A stretch of DNA of 20,000 nucleotides from the IMG/VR virus record IMGVR_UViG_3300027996_000021. One strand, 5' to 3'. Both the position numbers and the translations under genes were made by a program. Every line of letters begins with the position of its first letter. Positions within the stretch are counted from its first letter, which is position 1. The DNA is from an uncultured virus (IMG/VR IMGVR_UViG_3300027996_000021) (taxonomy: Duplodnaviria; Heunggongvirae; Uroviricota; Caudoviricetes). Below, in pieces: positions 2,384 through 19,305 of this stretch. The notes below the pieces were generated by a model. It saw nothing but the letters and a program-made list of their open reading frames with translations. It was not told the origin of the DNA and ran no database searches.

Positions 2384-2573
2384 GAAGAGTCAAAAAAGAA
2401 AACTCAAACCGCAGGCGATGAGATCTCGTCGCGCTGCCTTGAGCCACTTTAAAAAGTGTCACAGTACCTCGCCCAAAAAGCGAGGTTCTTTTGTATACTA
2501 CGTTCATACGAAACAAATCAATGGCAGTTTCTCACGAAATCAAATCTCAACTTGCCAAACTTCTAGCAACTGA
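2352..2573 (+). CDS. Small basic hypothetical protein (MKVPNWQHHSKK...)
   Basis: K/R-rich ORF. Its 3' half runs through a terminator/promoter and overlaps the next gene, so the C-terminus is doubtful. Confidence 0.45.
   Translation: MKVPNWQHHSKKSQKRKLKPQAMRSRRAALSHFKKCHSTSPKKRGSFVYYVHTKQINGSFSRNQISTCQTSSN
2445..2499 (+). promoter_or_regulatory. Putative early promoter: palindrome CACTTT-AA-AAAGTG plus -10 TATACT
   Basis: Palindrome at 2445-2458 and TATACT at 2494-2499. The same architecture recurs at 4685-4739. Confidence 0.6.
2466..2492 (+). terminator. Rho-independent terminator-like hairpin
   Basis: ACCTCGC-ccaaaaa-GCGAGGT followed by TCTTTT. Confidence 0.6.
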
Positions 2574-4683
2574 AGATCTGGTTGTTGAGCATAAGAAGGT
2601 TCGTACTGCTTCCTTTAACGTCCATACACGGGTCCTAACTCTTCCTATGTGGGAAAAGGCGTCTAATATCGTTTATGATCTTCTGGTGGGTCATGAAGTG
2701 GGCCATGCATTGTATACTCCTGATATAGATTGGAGTAAAGATAGAGTTATCCCACCATCTTTTGTAAATATTGTTGAAGATGCTCGTATCGAAAAGATGA
2801 TGAAGCGTCGTTATGGTGGTCTATCTAAAACTTTCTTCGCTGGTTATCAAGAACTTTCAGACGAAGATTTTTTTGAAGTTGAAGATGAAGATATTAGTAA
2901 AATGAGTCTTGCAGATCGTGCAAATCTATACTTCAAAATTGGAAACTATGTTGATATTCCTTTTGCTAATCAGGAGGAGGATCGTCTGATCCAAGCAGTT
3001 GCAAATTGTGAAACATTTGATGATGTTCTTGATGTGTCCGAAGAAATTTATAATTACTGTAAAGAGACTCAAGAAAATAATTCTGTAGATTTAAAACCAA
3101 CATCACAAAATCAAGACCCTAATGGTCAACAGGATAGTGATCAACAGCAAGATAAAGAATGGTTTACTGAAGAAAATCCTGATGAAAAGGGTGAAGAATT
3201 AGAAAGAACTGATCCAGATCTTGATACTCCAAGTTATCAGCAGGAAGATCAACCCTCTGATAATGAACCAGAAGTTAAGACTGATGCAGCTTTCGATAAA
3301 AATATTGAAGATCTTATTGATGATTTATCTACTACTGAGAATAATTATGTTGAACTTCCAAAACTTGATCTGAATAAAATCATTGTAGATACTACAAAGT
3401 TTCATGATTATCTAAACAAATCTTTTGATGATATGCAAGAAGAATCTGATAGTAGACATATCATGTATGAAAGAACTCCAGTTAATATCTATGAAATAGC
3501 TGATACTCAGTATAAAAAATTTAAAAAATCTGCTCAGAAAGAAGTCAGTTATCTTGTAAAAGAATTTGAATGTAAAAAATCTGCTGCTTCTTATTCCCGA
3601 GCAACTACTGCTCGTACTGGAGTTTTAGATTGTTCCAAACTACACACCTATAAGTACAACGAAGATCTCTTTAAGAAAGTTACAACTCTTGCTGATGGTA
3701 AGAACCATGGTTTGGTGTTTGTTCTTGATTGGAGTGGTTCAATGTCAGGAACTCTTTTGGACACTATCAAACAACTATTCAACTTGATTTGGTTTTGTAA
3801 AAAAACTAATATTCCTTTTGAAGTCTATGCGTTCACTAACAACTGGAGAGAACCTGATCCTAATCACAATGGATATTTTAAAATGCCAGATCCATCTTAT
3901 GAATTAAAAGATGGTATTCTACAAGTCAGTAAAGACTTTAATCTACTTAATATGCTCAGTAATAGAATCAAAACTTCCGAGTTTGAAAATTGTATGAAAA
4001 ATGTCTGGAGACTTTGTGCTGCATATAGTAACACATCTAGCATGTATGATGTTCCATCTCATGCTGGATTATCTGGAACACCTCTCAATGAAGCAATTGT
4101 TTGCCTAAATCAAATTCTTCCAGACTTTAAAAAGAAAAACAAACTTGAAAAAGTTCAATGTGTTATTTTGACTGATGGTGAAGCTCATCCTCTAAATCGT
4201 CACGTTGAAATCTCATATGCATATAATAAAGAAGAAAGTTTTATTGGCACTAGGTCTGTTTATCCAAATGCAACTTTTCTTCGTGATCGTAAACTTGGTA
4301 AAACCTATTGTTTTGGTTATGGGTATCATAAGTTCACGGAAACTCTTTTAAATAATCTTCGTGATCGTTATCCAGATATTAACTTTATTGGTATTCGTGT
4401 TCTTGGTCCTCGCGAAGCAACAAAATTCATGCAAATGTATTTAAAATCTGAAGAGTTTCTTAATGCAGAAAAATCTTGGAAAAATAATCGTAGTTTTTCT
4501 ATGAAAAATGTGGGATACACTGCATACTTTGGGTTATCTTCTAACGGACTTTCCCAGAATTCTGAATTTGAAGTTAATGATAATGCAACTAAAGGTCAAA
4601 TCCGAAGTGCATTCAAGAAGTCTTTAAACTCTAAGAAAATGAACAAGAAAGTTCTTTCAGAATTCATCTCTCTTGTTTGCTGA
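2521..4683 (+). CDS. CobT-like protein: N-terminal HExxH metallopeptidase-like domain, acidic linker and C-terminal vWA domain
   Basis: HEVGH, NIVEDARIE, D/E/Q-rich linker, MIDAS motif LDWSGSM, GTPL and ILTDGE. ATG at 2521 follows the promoter. Confidence 0.85.
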   Translation: MAVSHEIKSQLAKLLATEDLVVEHKKVRTASFNVHTRVLTLPMWEKASNIVYDLLVGHEVGHALYTPDIDWSKDRVIPPSFVNIVEDARIEKMMKRRYGGLSKTFFAGYQELSDEDFFEVEDEDISKMSLADRANLYFKIGNYVDIPFANQEEDRLIQAVANCETFDDVLDVSEEIYNYCKETQENNSVDLKPTSQNQDPNGQQDSDQQQDKEWFTEENPDEKGEELERTDPDLDTPSYQQEDQPSDNEPEVKTDAAFDKNIEDLIDDLSTTENNYVELPKLDLNKIIVDTTKFHDYLNKSFDDMQEESDSRHIMYERTPVNIYEIADTQYKKFKKSAQKEVSYLVKEFECKKSAASYSRATTARTGVLDCSKLHTYKYNEDLFKKVTTLADGKNHGLVFVLDWSGSMSGTLLDTIKQLFNLIWFCKKTNIPFEVYAFTNNWREPDPNHNGYFKMPDPSYELKDGILQVSKDFNLLNMLSNRIKTSEFENCMKNVWRLCAAYSNTSSMYDVPSHAGLSGTPLNEAIVCLNQILPDFKKKNKLEKVQCVILTDGEAHPLNRHVEISYAYNKEESFIGTRSVYPNATFLRDRKLGKTYCFGYGYHKFTETLLNNLRDRYPDINFIGIRVLGPREATKFMQMYLKSEEFLNAEKSWKNNRSFSMKNVGYTAYFGLSSNGLSQNSEFEVNDNATKGQIRSAFKKSLNSKKMNKKVLSEFISLVC

Positions 4684-4761: not shown

Positions 4762-5829
4762 ATGGCAATTTCCTCCGAGTATATCGTTTCATCTCTTCAG
4801 CAAATCTATGGAGATAAAATTTCTTCTGGAGATCTACGTGCATGGTCTGCACTAAATGGAGTTAGTTATCAGACTATCACTAATAAACTTGCTGATCGTA
4901 AAATTGGTCGTGGTAAGTGGAATCTAGAAGTAACACAAGAAACTGTGAAAGAGTTGGAAGTAACTTATAGTGCTCCTGCAGCATTACCCGCAATCGAGCA
5001 AAATCTTGTTCCTGAAAAAGATGCTAACTTCGTCCAGTTTGGTAACTTTAAAGATCTTAAAAAAATTATTAACTCCCGTAATTTTTATCCAACGTTCATC
5101 ACGGGTCTTTCGGGTAATGGTAAAACGTTCTCTGTGGAGCAAGCATGTGCTATTCTAAATAGAGAGTTAATTCGCGTGAACATCACGATTGAAACCGACG
5201 AAGATGATCTTATTGGTGGGTTCCGTCTGGTTAATGGCGAAACTGTTTGGCATAATGGTCCTGTCATCGAAGCTTTGGAACGTGGAGCTGTGTTGCTTCT
5301 AGACGAGGTTGACCTTGCATCAAACAAGATCCTATGTCTACAATCTGTTCTTGAAGGAAGAGGTGTTTTTCTTAAAAAGACTGGTCGTTTTGTAAAACCT
5401 GCTGCTGGTTTTAACATCATTGCCACTGCTAATACTAAAGGTAAGGGATCTGAGGACGGACGATTTATTGGAACTAACGTTCTTAATGAAGCATTCCTTG
5501 AAAGATTTCCAGTAACATTTGAACAAGAGTATCCTCTACCTGCAACAGAGCAGAAGATTCTTACTTCTATGATTGATGATAATCAATTTTGTAAGAATCT
5601 TGTAGATTGGGCAGACATCATCCGCAAAACATTCTTTGACGGGGGTGTTGAGGAAGTGATCAGTACACGTCGTTTAGTTCATATTGTTCAAGCCTATATC
5701 ATCTTTGGTGATAAGGCAAAGGCTATTCAAATTTGTCTGAATCGCTTTGATGATGAAACCAAACAAGCATTTCTTGAACTATATGACAAAGTTGATACTG
5801 ATGTAAATTTTGAAGAAAATGAACTATAG
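4762..5829 (+). CDS. cobS: CobS-like / MoxR-family AAA+ ATPase
   Basis: Walker A GLSGNGKT, Walker B LLLDEVD, sensor ATANTKG, NEAFLERF and STRRL. Adjacent to a vWA protein. Confidence 0.9.
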   Translation: MAISSEYIVSSLQQIYGDKISSGDLRAWSALNGVSYQTITNKLADRKIGRGKWNLEVTQETVKELEVTYSAPAALPAIEQNLVPEKDANFVQFGNFKDLKKIINSRNFYPTFITGLSGNGKTFSVEQACAILNRELIRVNITIETDEDDLIGGFRLVNGETVWHNGPVIEALERGAVLLLDEVDLASNKILCLQSVLEGRGVFLKKTGRFVKPAAGFNIIATANTKGKGSEDGRFIGTNVLNEAFLERFPVTFEQEYPLPATEQKILTSMIDDNQFCKNLVDWADIIRKTFFDGGVEEVISTRRLVHIVQAYIIFGDKAKAIQICLNRFDDETKQAFLELYDKVDTDVNFEENEL

Positions 5830-6394
5830 TCAATTATCTGATGAAGTTTTCTGGGTGAAACAAATTTACTCAGAAGATTACTTTCAAACTATAAGTGAAG
5901 AGTTTGATCTAAGATATAATCATGTGGCATTCACTAAAAGAGAAATCTTAGGTCAACCTTGCTTTGGAACTTTGCAGGATACTGCCACGTATTTTTCTGG
6001 ATCGGCTTCCAATAATAATCTTGGATGGAATTACAAATTTATCGATGCATCGATACGTGCCAGACTCTACGTTCAAAAAATTCTCAAAAGAAATGTAAAA
6101 CTTTCGAGAGTAAATACCAATTTGCAATTCTTTGGGCAAGAGTCTGATTGGCATACTGATTATGTAGAAGATGGTAATGCTTGGTCATTTGTAATCTATG
6201 TAAATCAAAACTGGGATTTAACTTGGGATGGTCAATTTGTTGTTGAAACGAATGATGGGGAGTATATTAATGTAAGCCCAATCCCCAATACTGGAGTTCT
6301 GTTTAATGCTAAATTAGAACACCGAGGAGGAGCTCCAAATAGATTTGCTATGGATTCACGATGGTCTATTGCTTTTTTGTTTGAAGAGGTGTAG
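5810..6394 (+). CDS. 2OG-Fe(II) oxygenase (prolyl-hydroxylase-like)
   Basis: HxD (WHTD), distal His (LEHRG), 2OG-binding Arg (SRWSIAF) and WxxxWxG motif. Confidence 0.85.
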   Translation: MKKMNYSQLSDEVFWVKQIYSEDYFQTISEEFDLRYNHVAFTKREILGQPCFGTLQDTATYFSGSASNNNLGWNYKFIDASIRARLYVQKILKRNVKLSRVNTNLQFFGQESDWHTDYVEDGNAWSFVIYVNQNWDLTWDGQFVVETNDGEYINVSPIPNTGVLFNAKLEHRGGAPNRFAMDSRWSIAFLFEEV

Positions 6395-11788: not shown

Positions 11789-12223
11789 ATGGGAAACCTT
11801 GCACGGTACACTGCTGCAGACCTACCTGCGTTGATGGAGCGTATAAATAAGAATAGCATAGGAATGGATGAATACTTTGATAGGTTGTTTAATCTCCACG
11901 AAACAACAAAGAATTATCCACCATTTAATCTAGTCACGGTCAGCAACGTAGAATCACGACTAGAACTTGCACTTGCAGGATTTAAAAAGAAAGAAGTAAA
12001 TGTCTACACACAAGACGGTAAACTCTTTGTCGAAGGACAAAAAGAGGATACCGAAACAGAAACCACCTATGTCCACAGAGGAATGGCTCAACGATCTTTC
12101 ACCAGATCTTGGACACTGGCAGAGGACACGGAAGTTAGATCAGTTGAATTTGAGGATGGGTTGTTAACAATTGTTCTTGGTAGGATTGTACCCGAACATC
12201 ATCAAAAAAAAGTTTGGTTCTAA
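11789..12223 (+). CDS. hsp20: Small heat shock protein Hsp20 (IbpA-like)
   Basis: NYPPFNL, LELALAGF, HRGMAQRSFTRSWTL and DGLLTI; strong AAGGAG RBS. Confidence 0.96.
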   Translation: MGNLARYTAADLPALMERINKNSIGMDEYFDRLFNLHETTKNYPPFNLVTVSNVESRLELALAGFKKKEVNVYTQDGKLFVEGQKEDTETETTYVHRGMAQRSFTRSWTLAEDTEVRSVEFEDGLLTIVLGRIVPEHHQKKVWF

Positions 12224-12255
12224 ATAATTAAGGGCAATGCCCAATATCGTCGCCT

Positions 12256-12285
12256 GACCCCGCTTGACAAAGACCAAGCGGGGTC
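12256..12285. repeat. Perfect 11-bp inverted repeat (hairpin, possible terminator or operator)
   Basis: GACCCCGCTTG-acaaagac-CAAGCGGGGTC. Confidence 0.85.
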
Positions 12286-12292
12286 TTATAAT
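12264..12292 (+). promoter_or_regulatory. Consensus sigma70-type promoter upstream of the DNA polymerase operon
   Basis: TTGACA (12264-12269), 17-nt spacer, TATAAT (12287-12292). Confidence 0.85.
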
Positions 12293-12312
12293 GTAAAAAA
12301 CCGATTCATAAG

Positions 12313-12690
12313 ATGAGTATCAAATTAGCAATTCTCAAATCTGGAGAGCAAGTTATTTCTGATATTAAAGAAATGCTATCTCCTGAACAAAAAGTTATTG
12401 GTTATCTTCTAAAAAATACGTATACAGTCTGGGAAGATGATACTGAAGAGGTTGAAATTCTACTGGAAGAATCAGAACCAGAAGATATCGATAAGAACAA
12501 TGTTGATATTGTAATGACGAAATGGATTCGCCTCTCCAAGAGTGATGAAATCATGATTCCAGTAGATTGGGTTGTTACTATTGTAGACCCACTAGATAGT
12601 TTGATTGAAATGTACACTTCCACTTTTAAAGAAAATGATTCAATGCCTACTTCTGAAATCCCAGGATCTAATACTGATCTCCAAGGTTGA
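12313..12690 (+). CDS. Hypothetical phage protein (possibly Sm-like fold)
   Basis: MSIKLAILKSGEQVIS...W...IPVDWVVTIVDP. Confidence 0.75.
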   Translation: MSIKLAILKSGEQVISDIKEMLSPEQKVIGYLLKNTYTVWEDDTEEVEILLEESEPEDIDKNNVDIVMTKWIRLSKSDEIMIPVDWVVTIVDPLDSLIEMYTSTFKENDSMPTSEIPGSNTDLQG

Positions 12691-12943
12691 ACAAGTTGAA
12701 ACTGACCCCCTATCTGGAGAACCAAATTGCAAACTAATTGATCCAGCTAGAATCTTTTTTAAAATGGTAAAAACTGATCACAAATACGATGATCGTGAAC
12801 CATACACATATGTTTTAGAAAGTTGGCCTGAATATGGCATTACTGATCAAAAAGAAGTAATGATCCATTCTGATGCTATACTTACTATTGTTGAACCAGG
12901 TGAAAAACTGGTAAAAGCCTACGAAGACTTTATTAAAGAATGA
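12635..12943 (+). CDS. Hypothetical phage protein, likely paralog of the upstream ORF
   Basis: MIQCLLLKSQDLILIS...WP...IHSDAILTIVEP. The ATG at 12635 is preferred; ATGA overlap with gp43. Confidence 0.7.
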   Translation: MIQCLLLKSQDLILISKVEQVETDPLSGEPNCKLIDPARIFFKMVKTDHKYDDREPYTYVLESWPEYGITDQKEVMIHSDAILTIVEPGEKLVKAYEDFIKE

Positions 12944-14217
12944 GATTCTACACTAATGTTCAAATGGTCGGGGATCAATTTCTCGTCCGAGGTTATGAAA
13001 ACGGTCAAAGTTTCATGACTCGGGAGAAGTTCAACCCGACTCTTTTTGTATCTTCCAATAAGAAAACCAAGTACAAAACTCTTGAAGGAAATTACGTTGA
13101 ACCAATTCAACCTGGGTCAGTACGTGACTGCCGAGACTTTATCAAAAGGTATGATGGTGTAGAAGATTTTAATATCTATGGTAATGAACGTTTCATCTAT
13201 CAGTATATTTCTGAAAAGTACCCTGATGATGAGATCCGTTTTGATATCTCAAAGATTAATCTATACACCCTTGATATTGAGGTTGCATCCGAGAATGGAT
13301 TCCCCGACGTGGAGTCGGCTGCAGAAGAGATTCTCCTCATCTCCATTCAGCATTACACCACGAAGGAAATCATCACCTGGGGTGTGAAATCTTTCAACAA
13401 CTCTCAGGATAATGTGGAGTATCGTCTATGTGATTCTGAGTACCATTTACTATCCAACTTCATCAGTTGGTGGATGGAAAATACTCCAGACATTATCACT
13501 GGTTGGAACTGTGAACTGTACGATATTCCGTACATTACAAAGCGTCTTAACCGCGTTTTGGGTGAGAAACTAATGAAGCGTCTGTCGCCATGGGGACTAG
13601 TGACAGAACGTGAGATCTTTGTTGCTGGCCGTAAACAATTGAGTATCGATGTTGGTGGTGTAACTCAGTTAGATTATCTGAATCTATACAAGAAGTTTAC
13701 ATATACCAGTCAGGAATCTTATCGTCTGGATCATATTGCCTTTGTGGAATTGGGGCAGAAAAAACTAGATCACTCTGAGTTTGATACATTCAAAGATTTC
13801 TATACAAATGACTGGCAAAAGTTTGTAGAGTATAACATCATTGACGTGGAACTTGTTGACCGTTTGGAAGATAAGATGAAACTGATTGAACTTGCATTGA
13901 CCATGGCTTATGATGCCAAGGTGAATTACAATGATGTGTTCTATCAGGTTCGTATGTGGGATAGTATCATCTACAACTATCTCAAGAAGCAGAATATTGT
14001 AATTCCACCTAAAAAAGGTAGCAATAAAGATGACAAATATGCTGGAGCATATGTCAAAGAGCCTATTCCTGGAAGGTATGATTGGGTTGTTTCCTTTGAC
14101 TTGAATTCTCTTTATCCACACCTTATAATGCAATACAACATCTCACCAGAGACACTAATTGATATGGGCAACTTAAATTCTAGAATTGAGGAATTGGAAG
14201 ATGCATTATCCAATTAA
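12940..14217 (+). CDS. gp43: Family B DNA polymerase gp43, N-terminal subunit (N-terminal domain, 3'-5' exonuclease, motif A)
   Basis: ExoI LDIE, ExoII GWNCELYDIPY, ExoIII YNIIDV, YAGAYV and motif A SFDLNSLYPHLIMQYNISPET, then a stop codon. Confidence 0.95.
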   Translation: MRFYTNVQMVGDQFLVRGYENGQSFMTREKFNPTLFVSSNKKTKYKTLEGNYVEPIQPGSVRDCRDFIKRYDGVEDFNIYGNERFIYQYISEKYPDDEIRFDISKINLYTLDIEVASENGFPDVESAAEEILLISIQHYTTKEIITWGVKSFNNSQDNVEYRLCDSEYHLLSNFISWWMENTPDIITGWNCELYDIPYITKRLNRVLGEKLMKRLSPWGLVTEREIFVAGRKQLSIDVGGVTQLDYLNLYKKFTYTSQESYRLDHIAFVELGQKKLDHSEFDTFKDFYTNDWQKFVEYNIIDVELVDRLEDKMKLIELALTMAYDAKVNYNDVFYQVRMWDSIIYNYLKKQNIVIPPKKGSNKDDKYAGAYVKEPIPGRYDWVVSFDLNSLYPHLIMQYNISPETLIDMGNLNSRIEELEDALSN

Positions 14218-14764
14218 GATTAGTGACGTTATTCCATATTGGTTATTTAAATCTCTTCAGGATGAGTACTATTTCACTGGTTGGAAAATGTATAATGTTT
14301 CCAGTGATAATTCTGGAGAAAGATATTCATGGAGCATAAACACTCATCAACCAAATCAATTAATTTTTTATCAGATTGCAACTTATATAAAGTATAGAAT
14401 AAAAAAATATATTAAGAAAGATCTACATTTCATTAGGGCACATACAAATCTATATGTTTATGGGCAAACTGGAAAATTCCATAAAGATTTTGTGGTAGAT
14501 AAAATCTGGACTTTTATTTTATTCACTACACCAAACTGGAATATTCAATGGGGTGGCGAATTTGTATGCTATGATGGGAAGGAATACAGTTATGTGCCAC
14601 ATATTCCAAATGCAGGTGTTTTGATACCATCTAACTGGGAACATTATGGATCTTGTCCAAATGAACTGGCTAACTGTTCAAGAACTTCAATTGGTTTTAC
14701 TTTTGCCGAAACTGATGTACTAAAACAGGTACTAGATCTTAAAGTTGCAAGGAGTTTTGTATGA
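14201..14764 (+). CDS. 2OG-Fe(II) oxygenase inserted between the two polymerase genes
   Basis: HxD (FHKD), WNIQWGGEF, distal His (WEHYG) and RTSIGF. GAGGA RBS at 14188-14192 before the ATG at 14201. Confidence 0.85.
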   Translation: MHYPIKISDVIPYWLFKSLQDEYYFTGWKMYNVSSDNSGERYSWSINTHQPNQLIFYQIATYIKYRIKKYIKKDLHFIRAHTNLYVYGQTGKFHKDFVVDKIWTFILFTTPNWNIQWGGEFVCYDGKEYSYVPHIPNAGVLIPSNWEHYGSCPNELANCSRTSIGFTFAETDVLKQVLDLKVARSFV

Positions 14765-16113
14765 CTATGTGGAAAGATGTTAGGGGGATGTCAAAAGAAG
14801 AAATTGCATCTGAACTAGAAAATCTAAAAAAAGTCAGAGAGATCTCTACAAAAGTAAATGTTGATAAAGTTTTAAGTGAAGAAATGGATCTTAAACCTTT
14901 ATCAAAGGTTAATATAACACTTGCCGCTAATGGTGCATTATATAATTGTGTTCGGGGATTTCTTCCCAAATTGATGGATAAGATGTATGGTGAGCGTGTC
15001 ATCTTCAAAAAACGGATGCTCAAAGCCAAGCAGGAGTTTGAGAAGACTCCTACTGATGCACTTAAAAAGGAGATTGCCAGATGTAATAACATTCAAATGG
15101 CGAAGAAGATTTCTCTTAACTCTGCTTATGGTGCTATTGGCAATCAATACTTCAGGTATTATAAACTAGACAATGCAGAGGCTATTACGCTATCTGGCCA
15201 AGTCTCAATCCGATGGATTGAGAACAAGATGAATGGTTATCTAAACGACCTTTTAAAAACCGAGGAGGTGGATTATGTCATCGCTAGCGATACAGATTCA
15301 ATCTATCTTAATCTTGGACCTCTTGTTGATAAGTTTTTTAGTTCTAAGTCTGGCAATAAAGTAGAGATTGTTTCTATACTTGATAAGGTCTGCCAAGACA
15401 AATTGGAACCATTCATCGATAAGTCTTATCAGGAATTGGCATCATATGTATCGGCTTATGACCAGAAGATGGTCATGAAGCGAGAGAACATTGCTGATCG
15501 TGGAATCTGGACTGCGAAGAAGCGATATATTCTTAACGTATGGAACAGTGAGGGTGTTGCATATGCAGAACCAAAACTGAAGATCATGGGCATTGAAGCA
15601 GTCAAATCATCCACACCAGCACCTTGCCGTCAGATGATTAAGGATGCTCTCAAACTTGTAATGACTGGAACTGAAGATGATGTTATTGACTTCATTGAGC
15701 AATCGAGAAAAAGTTTCTTGCAGATGAAACCAGAGGAAATCTCTTTTCCTCGATCTGTTAGTAATGTTGAAAAGTTTTATGATCGGTCTAGTATCTATAG
15801 AAAGGCCACTCCAATCCATGTTCGTGGAGCTCTTCTGTTTAATCACTACATAAAAGATAAGAAACTTACAAACAAGTATTCTTTAATTCAAAACGGTGAG
15901 AAGATCAAGTTCTGTTATTTGAAGGTTCCAAATACTATTCATGAGAATGTACTTTCCTTTATTCAAGATTTTCCAAAAGAACTTGATTTGAATAAGTATG
16001 TGGACTATGAACTTCAATTCAACAAATCATTTGTTGATCCACTAAAAGCAATCCTAGATGCTATTGGTTGGTCTGTAGAAAAAACTGTAAGTCTGGAGGA
16101 CTTTTTCGGATGA
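14761..16113 (+). CDS. gp43: Family B DNA polymerase gp43, C-terminal subunit (fingers, motifs B and C, thumb, clamp-binding tail)
   Basis: ANGA..., motif B KISLNSAYG, motif C ASDTDSIY, KKRY, GIEAVKSSTP and C-terminal LEDFF. Own RBS AAGGAG at 14749-14754. Confidence 0.95.
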   Translation: MTMWKDVRGMSKEEIASELENLKKVREISTKVNVDKVLSEEMDLKPLSKVNITLAANGALYNCVRGFLPKLMDKMYGERVIFKKRMLKAKQEFEKTPTDALKKEIARCNNIQMAKKISLNSAYGAIGNQYFRYYKLDNAEAITLSGQVSIRWIENKMNGYLNDLLKTEEVDYVIASDTDSIYLNLGPLVDKFFSSKSGNKVEIVSILDKVCQDKLEPFIDKSYQELASYVSAYDQKMVMKRENIADRGIWTAKKRYILNVWNSEGVAYAEPKLKIMGIEAVKSSTPAPCRQMIKDALKLVMTGTEDDVIDFIEQSRKSFLQMKPEEISFPRSVSNVEKFYDRSSIYRKATPIHVRGALLFNHYIKDKKLTNKYSLIQNGEKIKFCYLKVPNTIHENVLSFIQDFPKELDLNKYVDYELQFNKSFVDPLKAILDAIGWSVEKTVSLEDFFG

Positions 16114-16307
16114 GAGATCAGTATACAATCGATGATGATGAATCAAAACAAGACAAATGGAACCGTGGGCTAGACCTCTTTATTGAGAGTGTTCTCAAAC
16201 CAGATGCTGCATTGAGGCAATGTGCTCATAACCAAAAATGCTTTCACGAATTGTTGGATGTTCGCGAAAATGTGCTAGAATATTTGAAAACAAAACGTTG
16301 GAATTAA
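16110..16307 (+). CDS. Small hypothetical protein (MRDQYTIDD...WNRGLDLFIESV...)
   Basis: ATGA overlap with the polymerase stop codon; fills the gap to uvsX. Confidence 0.7.
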   Translation: MRDQYTIDDDESKQDKWNRGLDLFIESVLKPDAALRQCAHNQKCFHELLDVRENVLEYLKTKRWN

Positions 16308-16310
16308 TTT

Positions 16311-17315
16311 ATGGATTTTTTGAAAGATATAGTAAAAGAGATTGGAGATGACTTCACCAAACTGGCAGCAGACATTGACGAAAGTGAAACATACGTTGAC
16401 ACTGGTTCGTTCATCTTTAATGCTCTTGTATCTGGGTCTATCCGTGGGGGTGTTTCTGGTAATAAAATCACTGCAATTGCTGGTGAAAGTTCTACGGGAA
16501 AAACTTTCTTCTCTCTCGCAGTGGTTAAGAATTTTCTGGATTCTAATCCTGATGGATACTGCTTGTATTTTGATACTGAGGCAGCTGTCAATAAATCGCT
16601 CTTAGAGAGTCGTGGAATCGATCTGAATCGTCTTGTCGTAGTGAATGTGGTAACGGTCGAAGAGTTCCGTAGCAAGGCACTCAAGGCAGTAGACATGTAT
16701 CTCAAAACGCCCGATGAAGATCGCAAACCCTGCATGTTTGTGCTAGACTCTTTAGGAATGCTATCCACTGAGAAAGAGATTACGGATGCTCTTAATGAAA
16801 AGCAAGTTCGGGACATGACCAAATCCCAACTTATCAAGGGTGCTTTCCGTATGCTCACGCTCAAGTTGGGTCAAGCAAACATTCCAATGATTGTTACTAA
16901 TCACACTTATGATGTCATCGGTTCTTATGTTCCAACTAAAGAAATGGGAGGAGGCAGCGGCCTCAAGTATGCAGCGAGTACAATCATCTATCTCAGCAAA
17001 AAGAAAGAGAAGGATGGAACAGAAGTCATTGGTAATCTTATCAAGGCAAAGACTCACAAGTCTCGTTTAAGTAAGGAGAACAAGGATGTTACGGTGCGTC
17101 TGTATTACGATGAGCGTGGTCTTGATCGATATTTTGGTCTTCTTGAACTCGGTGAGATTGGTGGACTTTGGAAAAATGTAGCAGGTCGTTACGAAATTGA
17201 TGGTAAGAAAGTTTATGCAAAGGCTATTCTAAAGGATCCAGAACAATACTTTACCCCAGAGGTTATGGAGAAACTTGACATGATTGCTCGTGAAGAATTT
17301 AGTTACGGTAGTTGA
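16311..17315 (+). CDS. uvsX: UvsX RecA-like recombinase
   Basis: Walker A GESSTGKT, YFDTE, VLDSLG and MGGGSGLKYAAS; located between gp43 and gp41. Confidence 0.95.
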   Translation: MDFLKDIVKEIGDDFTKLAADIDESETYVDTGSFIFNALVSGSIRGGVSGNKITAIAGESSTGKTFFSLAVVKNFLDSNPDGYCLYFDTEAAVNKSLLESRGIDLNRLVVVNVVTVEEFRSKALKAVDMYLKTPDEDRKPCMFVLDSLGMLSTEKEITDALNEKQVRDMTKSQLIKGAFRMLTLKLGQANIPMIVTNHTYDVIGSYVPTKEMGGGSGLKYAASTIIYLSKKKEKDGTEVIGNLIKAKTHKSRLSKENKDVTVRLYYDERGLDRYFGLLELGEIGGLWKNVAGRYEIDGKKVYAKAILKDPEQYFTPEVMEKLDMIAREEFSYGS

Positions 17316-18682
17316 TGGAACAAATTGAAATCACAATTCTGAGAAGTTTGGTCAACAATGAAGACTACGCTAGAAAGGTTATACCATTTTTACAACCAGA
17401 ATACTTTGAAGATCGCATTCAGAAAACAATCTTTCTTGAGACTTCAGAGTTTATTATCAAGTATGATAGTCTTATCTCTCTTGAAGCTCTACAGATTGAG
17501 ATCTCAAATCGTTCCGATCTCACTGGAGAAGATCTTCAGGAAGCAAAAAACTGTATTGATAAACTAGAAGAAAAAGAAGTTGATCAGAAATGGTTGACGG
17601 ATTCTACTGAGAAGTGGTGTCGTGATCGTGCCATTTATTTGGCGCTTATGGAATCAATTCATATTGCGGATGGTAATGATGAAAAGAAAAATCGCGATGC
17701 CATCCCTAGTATTCTGAGTAATGCTTTAGCAGTTTCTTTTGACAACCACATTGGCCATGATTATCTACAGGACTTTGCAGAAAGGTATGAGTCTTATCAC
17801 CGTAAAGAAGATCGGATTCCGTTTGATATTGAGTACCTTAACAAGATTACTAAAGGTGGTTTACCAAATAAGACTCTTAATATCGCTCTTGCTGGCACAG
17901 GTGTCGGAAAGTCTCTTTTTATGTGTCATATGGCTGCGTCATCTCTCCTCGCGGGATATAATGTACTGTATATCACTATGGAGATGGCAGAAGAAAAAAT
18001 TGCTGAGAGAATTGATGCGAACCTTTTGAATGTAAATATTCAAGAGATTGTTGATCTTCCACGTCCTATGTTTGAAAGCAAAGTATCAAACCTTGCTAAG
18101 AAGACTCAAGGCAATTTAATTGTCAAAGAATATCCTACTGCAAGCGCACATAGTGGACATTTTAAAGCACTTCTTAATGAACTTGCACTTAAGAAGTCAT
18201 TTAGACCTGATATTATTTTCATTGATTACCTTAATATATGTGCTTCCTCCCGTTATCGCGGAAACGGCAATGTCAATTCATATTCATATATTAAGTCTAT
18301 TGCAGAAGAGCTTAGAGGATTGGCTGTTGAAGCAAACGTCCCTATCGTTTCTGCCACGCAGACCACTCGTTCTGGTTATGCTAGCTCTGATGTTGACATT
18401 ACTGACACTTCTGAGTCCTTTGGTCTCCCTGCTACTGCTGATCTTATGTTTGCCCTTATTAGCACTGAGGAACTTGAACAACTTGGACAGATAATGGTAA
18501 AGCAACTGAAGAATAGGTACAATGATGGAAATGTAAATAAACGATTCATCGTTGGCATTGATCGTGCCAAGATGCGACTTTATGATTGTGAACAGAGTGA
18601 GCAGAATATCGTTGACACTGGACGAGATGAAGAGTATAATAATGAAGAATCCGTAAATAAATTTAGTGGTCTTCAATTTTAA
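17315..18682 (+). CDS. gp41: Replicative helicase gp41 (DnaB-like SF4)
   Basis: Walker A AGTGVGKS, ITMEMAEE, IFIDYL, SATQTTR, SESFGLPATAD and KQLKNRY. ATG at 17315 overlaps the uvsX stop codon. Confidence 0.97.
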   Translation: MEQIEITILRSLVNNEDYARKVIPFLQPEYFEDRIQKTIFLETSEFIIKYDSLISLEALQIEISNRSDLTGEDLQEAKNCIDKLEEKEVDQKWLTDSTEKWCRDRAIYLALMESIHIADGNDEKKNRDAIPSILSNALAVSFDNHIGHDYLQDFAERYESYHRKEDRIPFDIEYLNKITKGGLPNKTLNIALAGTGVGKSLFMCHMAASSLLAGYNVLYITMEMAEEKIAERIDANLLNVNIQEIVDLPRPMFESKVSNLAKKTQGNLIVKEYPTASAHSGHFKALLNELALKKSFRPDIIFIDYLNICASSRYRGNGNVNSYSYIKSIAEELRGLAVEANVPIVSATQTTRSGYASSDVDITDTSESFGLPATADLMFALISTEELEQLGQIMVKQLKNRYNDGNVNKRFIVGIDRAKMRLYDCEQSEQNIVDTGRDEEYNNEESVNKFSGLQF

Positions 18683-19305
18683 TGTTTGAATTAAATGCTA
18701 AAATTCAAATAAGAGTAGAATCTTTTCGAGATTCCACAATTTATTATATGGATGATTTTTATCAGGATCCCAATCAAATTGTTTCCTTCATCAACAATAC
18801 AGAATGTTCTTATCACAAGCAAGGTGAGCTAAATTCTTATAATGGTATTCACTTTGATGATAAACGCCATAATATTGAAAGTGGTATGATTGATCATGTT
18901 TATGATTTTTTATCAAAAATTTGCAATCAATCTCCAAATAGCAAAGCATTCAATACAAATGTAGGCAAATTTTTCGATAATTCATTTAATGATTATAAAA
19001 ATAATTATTGGTGGCCACACTTAGATCTGGGATATACTGCAATCGTATATTTGAATCATGAGCAAAATTGTGGGACAAATTTATATGATGGATTGGGCAC
19101 AGATAACAGAAAAGGTATATCAGAGCATAGTGCTCCGTGGAGGCCTAAAAAAAGTTATGAGGTGATCAAGTCCATTGAACCACGATATAATAGATGTGTT
19201 TTATTTAATGCAAAAAAATTTTTTCATGGTATGAATATTTGCAATGATTATTTTTTCAACGATGAATATAGACTAAATCATGTAATGTTTTTTAAAGAAA
19301 AATGA
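18682..19305 (+). CDS. 2OG-Fe(II) oxygenase-like protein (DUF6445-like)
   Basis: DDFYQDP, PHLD (HxD), AIVYLN, GTNLY, YNRCVLF...FFHG and RLNHVMF. Confidence 0.7.
   Translation: MFELNAKIQIRVESFRDSTIYYMDDFYQDPNQIVSFINNTECSYHKQGELNSYNGIHFDDKRHNIESGMIDHVYDFLSKICNQSPNSKAFNTNVGKFFDNSFNDYKNNYWWPHLDLGYTAIVYLNHEQNCGTNLYDGLGTDNRKGISEHSAPWRPKKSYEVIKSIEPRYNRCVLFNAKKFFHGMNICNDYFFNDEYRLNHVMFFKEK

Follow-up and report, generated by a model that had tools for sequence, protein, structure and literature searches.

A palm-loop split of the gp43 DNA polymerase gene, with an oxygenase gene in the break, in a putative T4-type cyanophage

Three coupled reading frames at the gp43 locus

We analyzed a stretch of 20,000 nucleotides (nt) from an uncultured virus (IMG/VR record IMGVR_UViG_3300027996_000021), hereafter called the window, in which the gene for the T4-type DNA polymerase gp43 is divided between two open reading frames (ORFs) and a third ORF, encoding a putative 2-oxoglutarate (2OG)-Fe(II) oxygenase, fills the break. 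According to the ORF listing, positions 12940–16113 are completely occupied by these three ORFs, which all lie on the + strand (Table 1). ORFs 1 and 3, referred to below as the N-half and the C-half, are consecutive parts of a T4-type family B DNA polymerase (PolB) and are colinear with RB69 and T4 gp43. In Pfam, the N-half matches DNA_pol_B_exo1 (PF03104) and the beginning of DNA_pol_B (PF00136, profile positions 18–94 of 453), and the C-half matches positions 100–452 of the latter profile. PHROG 262 (“DNA polymerase”) is matched by the N-half over profile positions 7–434 and by the C-half over positions 417–852, and the two halves jointly span the entire gp43 with no part missing. Motif A (DLNSLYP) is found in the first ORF, and motif B (KKISLNSAYG) and motif C (DTDS) are found in the third. 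A first-pass annotation of the window had described two gp43 ORFs, of 425 and 450 amino acids (aa), with the motifs distributed in this way; the ORF listing, the Pfam and PHROG 262 matches, and the sequence itself bear this description out.

The three ORFs are tightly packed. Counted from its ATG at 14201, the oxygenase ORF overlaps the N-half by 17 nt and the C-half by 4 nt (ATGA); an alternative TTG start at 14186 (14186–14764) would give a protein of 192 aa. In relatives, the C-half starts at a conserved MWKDV, which in the window lies two codons downstream of the first ATG (14767). The same annotation had stated that an intact oxygenase ORF fills the gap and overlaps both halves, and that the C-half has an AAGGAG of its own 6 nt before its ATG. 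Both statements hold: the overlaps are as given above, the catalytic triad of the oxygenase is conserved and its fold finds matches (see below), and the AAGGAG is present. A promoter scan of 12400–16400 returned 14 sigma-70-like sites compared with 14.6 expected, which is chance level; promoter-like 10/12 matches at 14101–14129 and 14159–14186 were not above chance either, and no terminator-like sites were found in 12400–16400.

Table 1. Features of the split gp43 locus in the window
Feature	Coordinates	Strand	Remarks
gp43 N-half, 425 aa	12940..14217	+	N-terminal domain, 3'-5' exonuclease domain, first palm segment with motif A; TAA stop at 14215-14217
N-half C-terminal tail arm, MGNLNSRIEELEDALSN	14164..14214	+	Not in ordinary contiguous cyanophage gp43 (alignment with seven contiguous gp43)
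Recombinant patch, ~790 bp	14165..14952	+	Covers tail, cargo, and head plus about 37 diverged palm codons; origin differs from that of the S-T4-like flanks
Cargo gene, predicted prolyl-hydroxylase-like 2OG-Fe(II) oxygenase, 187 aa from ATG	14201..14764	+	Start within tail codons; stop overlaps C-half start
Shine-Dalgarno-like AAGGAG	14749..14754	+	Direct reading of the sequence; 6 nt 5' of the C-half ATG at 14761
gp43 C-half, 450 aa	14761..16113	+	Remaining palm, fingers with motif B, motif C, thumb
C-half N-terminal head arm, MTMWKDVRGMSKEEIASELENLKKVRE, about 27 aa	14761..14841	+	Not in ordinary contiguous gp43; homology resumes after it

The split arrangement is not due to misassembly. Over 4412 base pairs (bp; window 12158–16569), the window is matched at 100% identity by an IMG/VR contig, and 20 public runs are listed as holding at least part of the stretch. 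The junctions were checked with Logan contigs from four runs of four studies, none of which is flagged as a possible source of the window. The first junction is crossed by contigs from X4 (13849–14371), X5 (13842–14513), and X6 (14060–14307), the second by contigs from X4 (14363–14971), X5 (14542–15117), and X6 (14714–15063), and a single X7 record covers both (14153–14872). Because an identical IMG/VR contig exists and independent contigs from four studies bridge both junctions, misassembly, a check that had been called for earlier, is ruled out. One X6 contig contains a joint that skips 14060–14956; it was considered as a cassette-free allele and rejected, as the shorter side of the joint comprises only 24 letters.

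The nearest isolate, Synechococcus phage S-T4, has one contiguous gp43, to which the window shows 89% nucleotide identity in two pieces flanking the insert; at the protein level, the N-half and the C-half are 94% and 86% identical to S-T4 gp43, respectively. Contiguous gp43 also occurs in Sf-CH5 and four further isolates. The N-half tracks contiguous gp43 through ...ISPETLID and then carries 17 additional residues, which we refer to as the tail; the extra residues that open the C-half are referred to as the head. Both arms are missing from six ordinary contiguous cyanophage gp43 proteins in an alignment. Using phmmer, the N-half could be aligned with RB69 gp43 to residue 431, and residues 53–94 of the C-half aligned weakly with residues 452–494 of T4 gp43, including the start of the first finger helix. 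Combining these alignments with the domain limits of RB69, we place the break before the fingers, within the first segment of the palm. The comparison with contiguous cyanophage and RB69 gp43 that the first-pass annotation had proposed has thus mapped the break to the end of ...ISPETLID, at RB69 residue 431; the site, which follows closely on motif A and corresponds to RB69 residues 431 to about 455, appears to be a loop on the surface of the palm domain.

Both arms contain invariant positions. Across 27 split N-halves, R415, I416, L419, and E420 of the tail do not vary, and in the 27 matched C-halves the same is true for M3, W4, K5, D6, M10, E14, I15, E18, L19, and L22 of the head. Hydrophobic positions in the arms recur at every three or four residues, as they do in amphipathic helices. 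As judged from the alignments, the short extra peptides at the new ends are conserved arms, borne by a cassette that is described below, and not incidental sequence; the two arms probably pair as helices.

Synechococcus phage S-CAM7 (L004:1199-3799) encodes a contiguous gp43 of 867 aa in which both arms are fused in frame by a short linker (…ITMDDLNIMIHNAQNDPSYDQEKLEAMLQVRQLS…) at the exact break site. This protein is either the product of a re-fused, formerly split gene or an ancestral form with a long loop; on the trees described below, it stands beside the split forms, but on a long branch. Such a fusion would require that the tail ends near the point where the head begins, and is thus a hint that the arms pair. 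A homologue search with the head region (residues 1–80) scored no long contiguous protein carrying the head, which is weak evidence, and when 50,697 phage records were searched with the head by tblastn, none of the matches extended over the first 17 residues of the head.

Recurrence of the break and its contents

A protein search with the C-half, limited to proteins of 247–788 aa and thereby excluding full-length gp43, yielded 7860 proteins at E ≤ 1e-20 among 8000 scored candidates. Among the best 120 near-length matches, 54 are exactly 448 aa long. The heads identify 75 of these 120 as split forms that begin with MWKD or close to it and 37 as pieces of contiguous genes, the other 8 being indeterminate. 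When IMG/VR was scanned with an alignment of ten heads, 94 relatives were found, 80 of which were kept, one being the window's twin. Seven of the other 79 loci were dropped (six contigs without an N-half and one with a C-half match starting from residue 90). In the resulting 72 IMG/VR loci and the window, both junctions are present at the identical site: at 73 of 73 loci, the N-half stops after a conserved ...LNxRIxELExxL tail and the C-half begins with MWKD. Sequences are repeated among samples, and these and the following locus counts therefore represent contigs, not independent events.

In the gap, 43 of the 73 loci have a gene for an HNH endonuclease (about 188 aa; PF01844, E 5.6e-9), and 13 have a GIY-YIG-like ORF (about 175 aa) that matches phrog_314, “homing endonuclease,” at E 3.5e-7. 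The latter ORFs have no Pfam GIY-YIG match; they share the pattern YVY...FYVG...R...E...N, which we take to be GIY-YIG-like, and for which Pfam gave no confirmation. An oxygenase gene is found at two loci (the window and L014), to which a metagenome scan added three more contigs with an oxygenase in the gap, and at the remaining 15 loci the gap measures 20–171 bp and holds no full gene. The first-pass annotation had suggested that the break acts as an insertion site for cargo genes, and the recurrence of the same break in 73 loci with five kinds of content upholds this. Judging from these contents, the break is the slot of a homing-endonuclease cassette. As 56 of the 73 loci carry an HNH or GIY-YIG-like gene there, we read the missing endonuclease of the window as a cargo swap rather than as another type of split. 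A protein search with the HNH endonuclease found no isolate with an HNH gene inside gp43.

Some short gaps, of 96–171 bp, hold pieces of HNH or GIY-YIG-like genes (L015:4898-5000, L035:4830-5000, and L082:4905-5000); from the persistence of such fragments, it follows that endonuclease decay leaves the split and the arms standing. A second kind of non-nuclease cargo was seen behind the HNH gene at L058:4524-4979 and L031:1401-1856, namely a gene for a 151-aa Dam-type N6-adenine methyltransferase (PF05869, E 2.8e-30). Small ORFs also occur behind the HNH gene in the gap (L053:4796-4996, L056:1288-1503, L065:4224-4397, and L040:4559-4804); these encode Cys-rich proteins of 57–71 aa, possibly zinc ribbons, and one 81-aa protein without a family match.

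Other elements follow the type of cargo. In 42 of the 43 HNH and 12 of the 13 GIY-YIG-like cassettes, the word TATAAATA, which is presumably a T4-type late-promoter word, follows the stop codon of the N-half within 70 nt; it occurs in neither of the two oxygenase cassettes and in 2 of 15 short gaps. The gap of the window has none, and the sole copy in the window is at 11842. This word is often located in or beside a hairpin (L021:4386-4450, L012:4427-4475, and others), and in GIY-YIG-like cassettes the hairpin also spans the start codon of the endonuclease gene. Tails ending in ELEKML go with HNH, those ending in ELESML with GIY-YIG-like genes, and those ending in LEDAL with the oxygenase or a 20-bp gap; the heads covary with the cargo likewise (SELENLKK versus EELEALK).

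The nucleotide identity between the window and S-T4, calculated as a sliding identity over a codon alignment, is 80–99% except at about residues 402–485 of the concatenated halves. Within this patch (Table 1), S-T4 is unalignable or 41–62% identical, and the nearest sequences are the split forms L014 and L008 (60–79%). The G+C content of the patch is 31.7%, compared with 38.9% and 37.6% in the flanks. Trees were built from 382 columns downstream of the patch; they are unrooted and quick, and recombination within the flank could add noise to them. On both C-terminal-flank trees, the label “split” or “contiguous” changes nine times, with at least five changes forced by starred branches in the FastTree tree (124 rows) and at least three in the quick IQ-TREE tree (53 rows). 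One starred group unites S-T4, the window, and two further split forms, and the approximately unbiased (AU) test rejects a single clade of split forms (difference in log-likelihood 282, p 2e-8). The intermixing of split and contiguous forms on the polymerase tree implies that the cassette moves, or is lost, by recombination. Since the trees are unrooted and quick, and recombination in the flank is possible, we conclude no more than that gain of the cassette, or its replacement by a contiguous patch, appears to have happened repeatedly.

The oxygenase in the slot

In Pfam, the window's oxygenase scores 24.5 bits for 2OG-FeII_Oxy_4 and 22.4 bits for 2OG-FeII_Oxy_3, against a cut-off of 27; its in-gap homologue in L014, which is 53% identical, lies above the cut-off with 29.6 and 27.8 bits. 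Among 21 homologues, H94, D96, and R161 are invariant and H148 is nearly so, which corresponds to an HxD...H triad plus a basic residue for 2OG. A profile search against sequences in the PDB gave marginal matches only (E 0.023 and 0.12); hence, a fold search was needed. The AlphaFold model of the oxygenase has a predicted local distance difference test (pLDDT) score of 82.5 and a predicted template modeling (pTM) score of 0.84. Foldseek matched this model to PHD2, OGFOD1, and a Pseudomonas prolyl-4-hydroxylase (P4H) that was solved with EF-Tu, with E about 1e-7 to 1e-6 and query template modeling scores (TMq) of 0.6–0.72; a PiuC-like oxygenase is also among the matches, within the same TMq range. 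Structural neighbors in the Atlas are viral PF13640 clusters, with TM scores of 0.78–0.92. AlkB and TET/JBP are families apart from the prolyl hydroxylases, and neither is among the matches listed for the oxygenase fold. Based on the model, the gap protein is predicted to be a P4H-like 2OG-Fe(II) oxygenase (PF13640) with a double-stranded beta-helix fold, and the matches to PHD2, OGFOD1, and P4H indicate that this fold points to a protein hydroxylase.

This oxygenase family is common among cyanophages, with most of its members encoded elsewhere in the genome. Of the family loci, only 2 of 49 in IMG/VR and 4 of 57 in the metagenome set are located within the gp43 gap, one of these four sharing its contig with L014; the other 47 and 53, respectively, are outside it. 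The nearest non-gap homologues that were checked (L086 and L090) are flanked by tail-fiber genes and stand beside another oxygenase gene. The window itself holds a paralogue at 5810–6391, between the cobS-like and clamp genes, which belongs to the same PHROG family and is 33% identical to the gap oxygenase (E 1e-26). Another ORF of the window, at 18682–19302, weakly matches the oxygenase PHROG, and BLASTP shows no similarity between it and the gap oxygenase.

The in-gap oxygenases form at least three lineages, at 100%, 65%, and 51–54% identity to the window's protein. In all of them, the ATG lies inside the tail codons and the stop adjoins the start of the C-half. That diverged copies have kept this geometry leads us to conclude that the oxygenase has long been resident in this sub-lineage. 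Four contigs of the oxygenase-bearing sub-lineage have a gap of only 20 bp. One metagenomic oxygenase, P0124, appears to be a chimera, being similar to the P0128 group over the N-terminal two thirds and near-identical over the final ~70 residues to P0122, a close relative of the window's protein.

We consider it most likely that the slot was first opened by an endonuclease and that the oxygenase rides in it as a passenger. One alternative idea is that it is tied to replication, either by hydroxylating the polymerase halves or another replisome protein, or by coupling replication to the 2OG, oxygen, or iron status of the host. The retention of start and stop geometry in copies that have diverged to 51–65% identity is in favor of this idea, as are the conserved catalytic residues and the resemblance to protein prolyl hydroxylases, one of which acts on EF-Tu. 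However, a nuclease gene takes the place of the oxygenase at 56 of the 73 split loci, and four close relatives manage with the 20-bp gap; moreover, the family occurs mostly elsewhere, in some cases between tail-fiber genes, a paralogue is present in the window, and tight packing is usual in phage operons. We therefore regard a role in replication as unlikely. A more elaborate possibility is that tail, slot, and head constitute a portable “split and clasp” device that converts an essential polymerase gene into an operon of two genes with a built-in landing pad, and that in this sub-lineage the pad was taken over by a protein hydroxylase acting on the polymerase arms or on another replisome protein, such that replication would answer to the 2OG, oxygen, or iron state; this we consider decidedly unlikely.

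Two polypeptides, published precedents, and a proposed cassette

Compared with the contiguous S-T4 gene, the ratio of nonsynonymous to synonymous substitution rates (dN/dS) is 0.028 for the N-half (399 codons) and 0.071 for the C-half (375 codons), and both halves are thus under strong purifying selection. Four related records of 66–141 kb, which CheckV rates as 34–65% complete, have no DNA_pol_B match apart from the pair of halves at this locus. Pfam searches of the window's three ORFs revealed neither an intein or Hint domain nor an endonuclease domain, and a search of 13900–15100 against Rfam at E up to 1 revealed no intron family, the only hit being a chance match to a small nucleolar RNA. 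Accordingly, the first-pass annotation was right in seeing no intein, intron core, or endonuclease here and in describing an intein-free polymerase encoded as two polypeptides. With no intein present, the halves would not be ligated and would have to function as a complex. By analogy with the published systems discussed below, we infer that they reassemble into one active polymerase, the active site of which would combine the motif A aspartate of one chain with motif C of the other.

It is conceivable that the halves end up in a single chain after all, through protein trans-splicing, RNA splicing, or translational bypass. Both are in frame 1 in the window (starts at 12940 and 14761), and cyanophage-like gp41, NrdA, and other genes are known to carry split inteins with an endonuclease gene in between (PMC2677866). 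Against this stand the lack of Pfam intein or Hint domains in either half, with arms of only about 17 and 27 aa, and of an Rfam intron family in the region searched; furthermore, the 549-nt gap is taken up by a conserved ORF in a different frame, the frames of the two halves differ in most relatives, and the C-half is equipped with a separate AAGGAG and a conserved initial Met. All in all, rejoining seems very improbable. That the split gene is a decaying pseudogene or an assembly artifact, with the polymerase function supplied elsewhere, is hardly credible: our view is limited to the 20,000-nt window, beyond which a second gp43 could lie, but dN/dS is 0.03–0.07 with all catalytic motifs intact (in keeping with the earlier remark that this is not a simple decayed gene), 72 other contigs share the architecture, independent contigs from four studies bridge the junctions, and the four related records have no other DNA_pol_B match.

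Three groups of published systems resemble this locus. In Aeromonas phage Aeh1, the ribonucleotide reductase (RNR) locus is arranged as nrdA-a/mobE/nrdA-b, and the enzyme depends for its activity on tails that originated with the mobE insertion (Crona et al., NAR, PMC3045599). As in Aeh1, an intein-less essential phage enzyme gene is cut in two at the slot of a free-standing homing endonuclease, and short AT-rich extensions at the new ends, absent from contiguous homologues, arrived with the insertion; the Aeh1 product is assembled from two polypeptides, a likeness that we deduce for our case from the genes. The two systems differ in that the enzyme here is PolB rather than RNR, that the slot in the window holds an oxygenase gene and no free-standing endonuclease gene (which is found in relatives), and that the arms are conserved over dozens of diverged phages, whereas the Aeh1 tails are described as having no database matches.

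Second, bicistronic gp43A/gp43B genes occur in the T4-like Aeromonas and Acinetobacter phages 44RR, 25, 31, 65, and 133 (PMC2988022, PMC3061061, and PMC2677866), and 43A and 43B of Aeromonas phage 25 copurify and are active (PMC2988022). These phages likewise make a T4-type PolB from two cistrons with no intein, and the gap in phage 25 has a GIY-YIG endonuclease gene. However, their gp43 is split in the fingertip (PMC3061061), whereas the break in the window lies about 45 residues before the first finger helix; cyanobacterial hosts, conserved arms, and a non-nuclease cargo further set our case apart. Third, fractured genes in marine metagenomes contain split inteins and a free-standing endonuclease gene (Dassa et al. 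2009, PMC2677866). The marine cyanophage-like setting, the involvement of replication genes, the endonuclease gene between the halves, the hairpin upstream of it, and some loss of the endonuclease are shared with the locus described here, but gp43 of the window has no intein.

The explanation that we favor, and consider probable, is that the window stems from an uncultured, S-T4-like T4-type cyanophage in which a palm-loop cassette splits gp43 into two polypeptides, this cassette being an endonuclease vehicle that now carries a passenger oxygenase. The cassette would comprise four parts: a tail of ~17 aa, a cargo slot, a head of about 25–27 aa, and a short stretch of polymerase that is transferred along with them. 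The tail is fused to the upstream half and the head to the downstream half, with the cut after motif A and before the fingers. The N-half, the cargo, and the C-half form one operon of three tightly coupled cistrons that encodes two polymerase polypeptides, which would then reassemble into one active enzyme with the two amphipathic arms pairing to assist. While the cassette would primarily be a vehicle for a homing endonuclease, its slot holds the oxygenase in this sub-lineage, and the passenger would most likely gain early co-expression with the replication genes.

Several observations weigh against this explanation or parts of it. The Aeh1 NrdA tails are not needed for the fragments to bind each other, only for higher-order assembly (PMC3045599), and, since those tails are dispensable for fragment binding, the “clasp” picture may be wrong here. 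The C-half folded alone (27 sequences) gave a poor model (mean pLDDT 60.5, pTM 0.46), in which residues 12–30 of the head are helical with a pLDDT of 40–55, too weak to use. The 73 loci include repeats from different samples and amount to 48 distinct tail/head combinations, and none of the listed runs that hold the sequence is recorded as RNA. The trees, being unrooted, give no direction of change for the pair formed by the window and S-T4: either the lineage of the window gained the cassette, or S-T4 lost it through replacement.

The principle itself, an intein-less essential gene fractured by a free-standing endonuclease and rescued by terminal extensions, is already published. What differs here are the palm-loop site after motif A, the marine cyanobacterial hosts, the conservation of the arms over about a hundred variants, and the replacement of the nuclease by an accessory gene. 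Literature searches, including PMC9960396, PMC2908710, and PMC10976474, retrieved no description of a palm-loop split in T4-like cyanophages; two studies by Petrov et al. (2006/2010, J Mol Biol) were outside the scope of these searches and could bear on the matter.

A widespread split of gp43 with a mobile, mosaic middle affects primers, gene calling, and gp43 trees. The gene is a standard marker for the diversity of T4-like cyanophages. Roughly a hundred natural variants of a split enzyme with conserved complementary ends should also be useful for understanding how essential genes survive selfish elements and for split-polymerase engineering. The oxygenase case shows that a homing-endonuclease slot can be reused for ordinary accessory genes.

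The genes around the split gp43 form the usual cyanomyovirus replication module: clamp, clamp loader, regA, and Hsp20, followed by UvsX, the gp41 helicase, and MazG. Three accessory genes lie upstream in the window, namely a purS-like ORF (1654–1926, phrog_1282), a gene for a 730-aa “peptidase” (2491–4680, phrog_459), and one for a cobS-like “porphyrin biosynthesis” ATPase (4762–5826, phrog_249).

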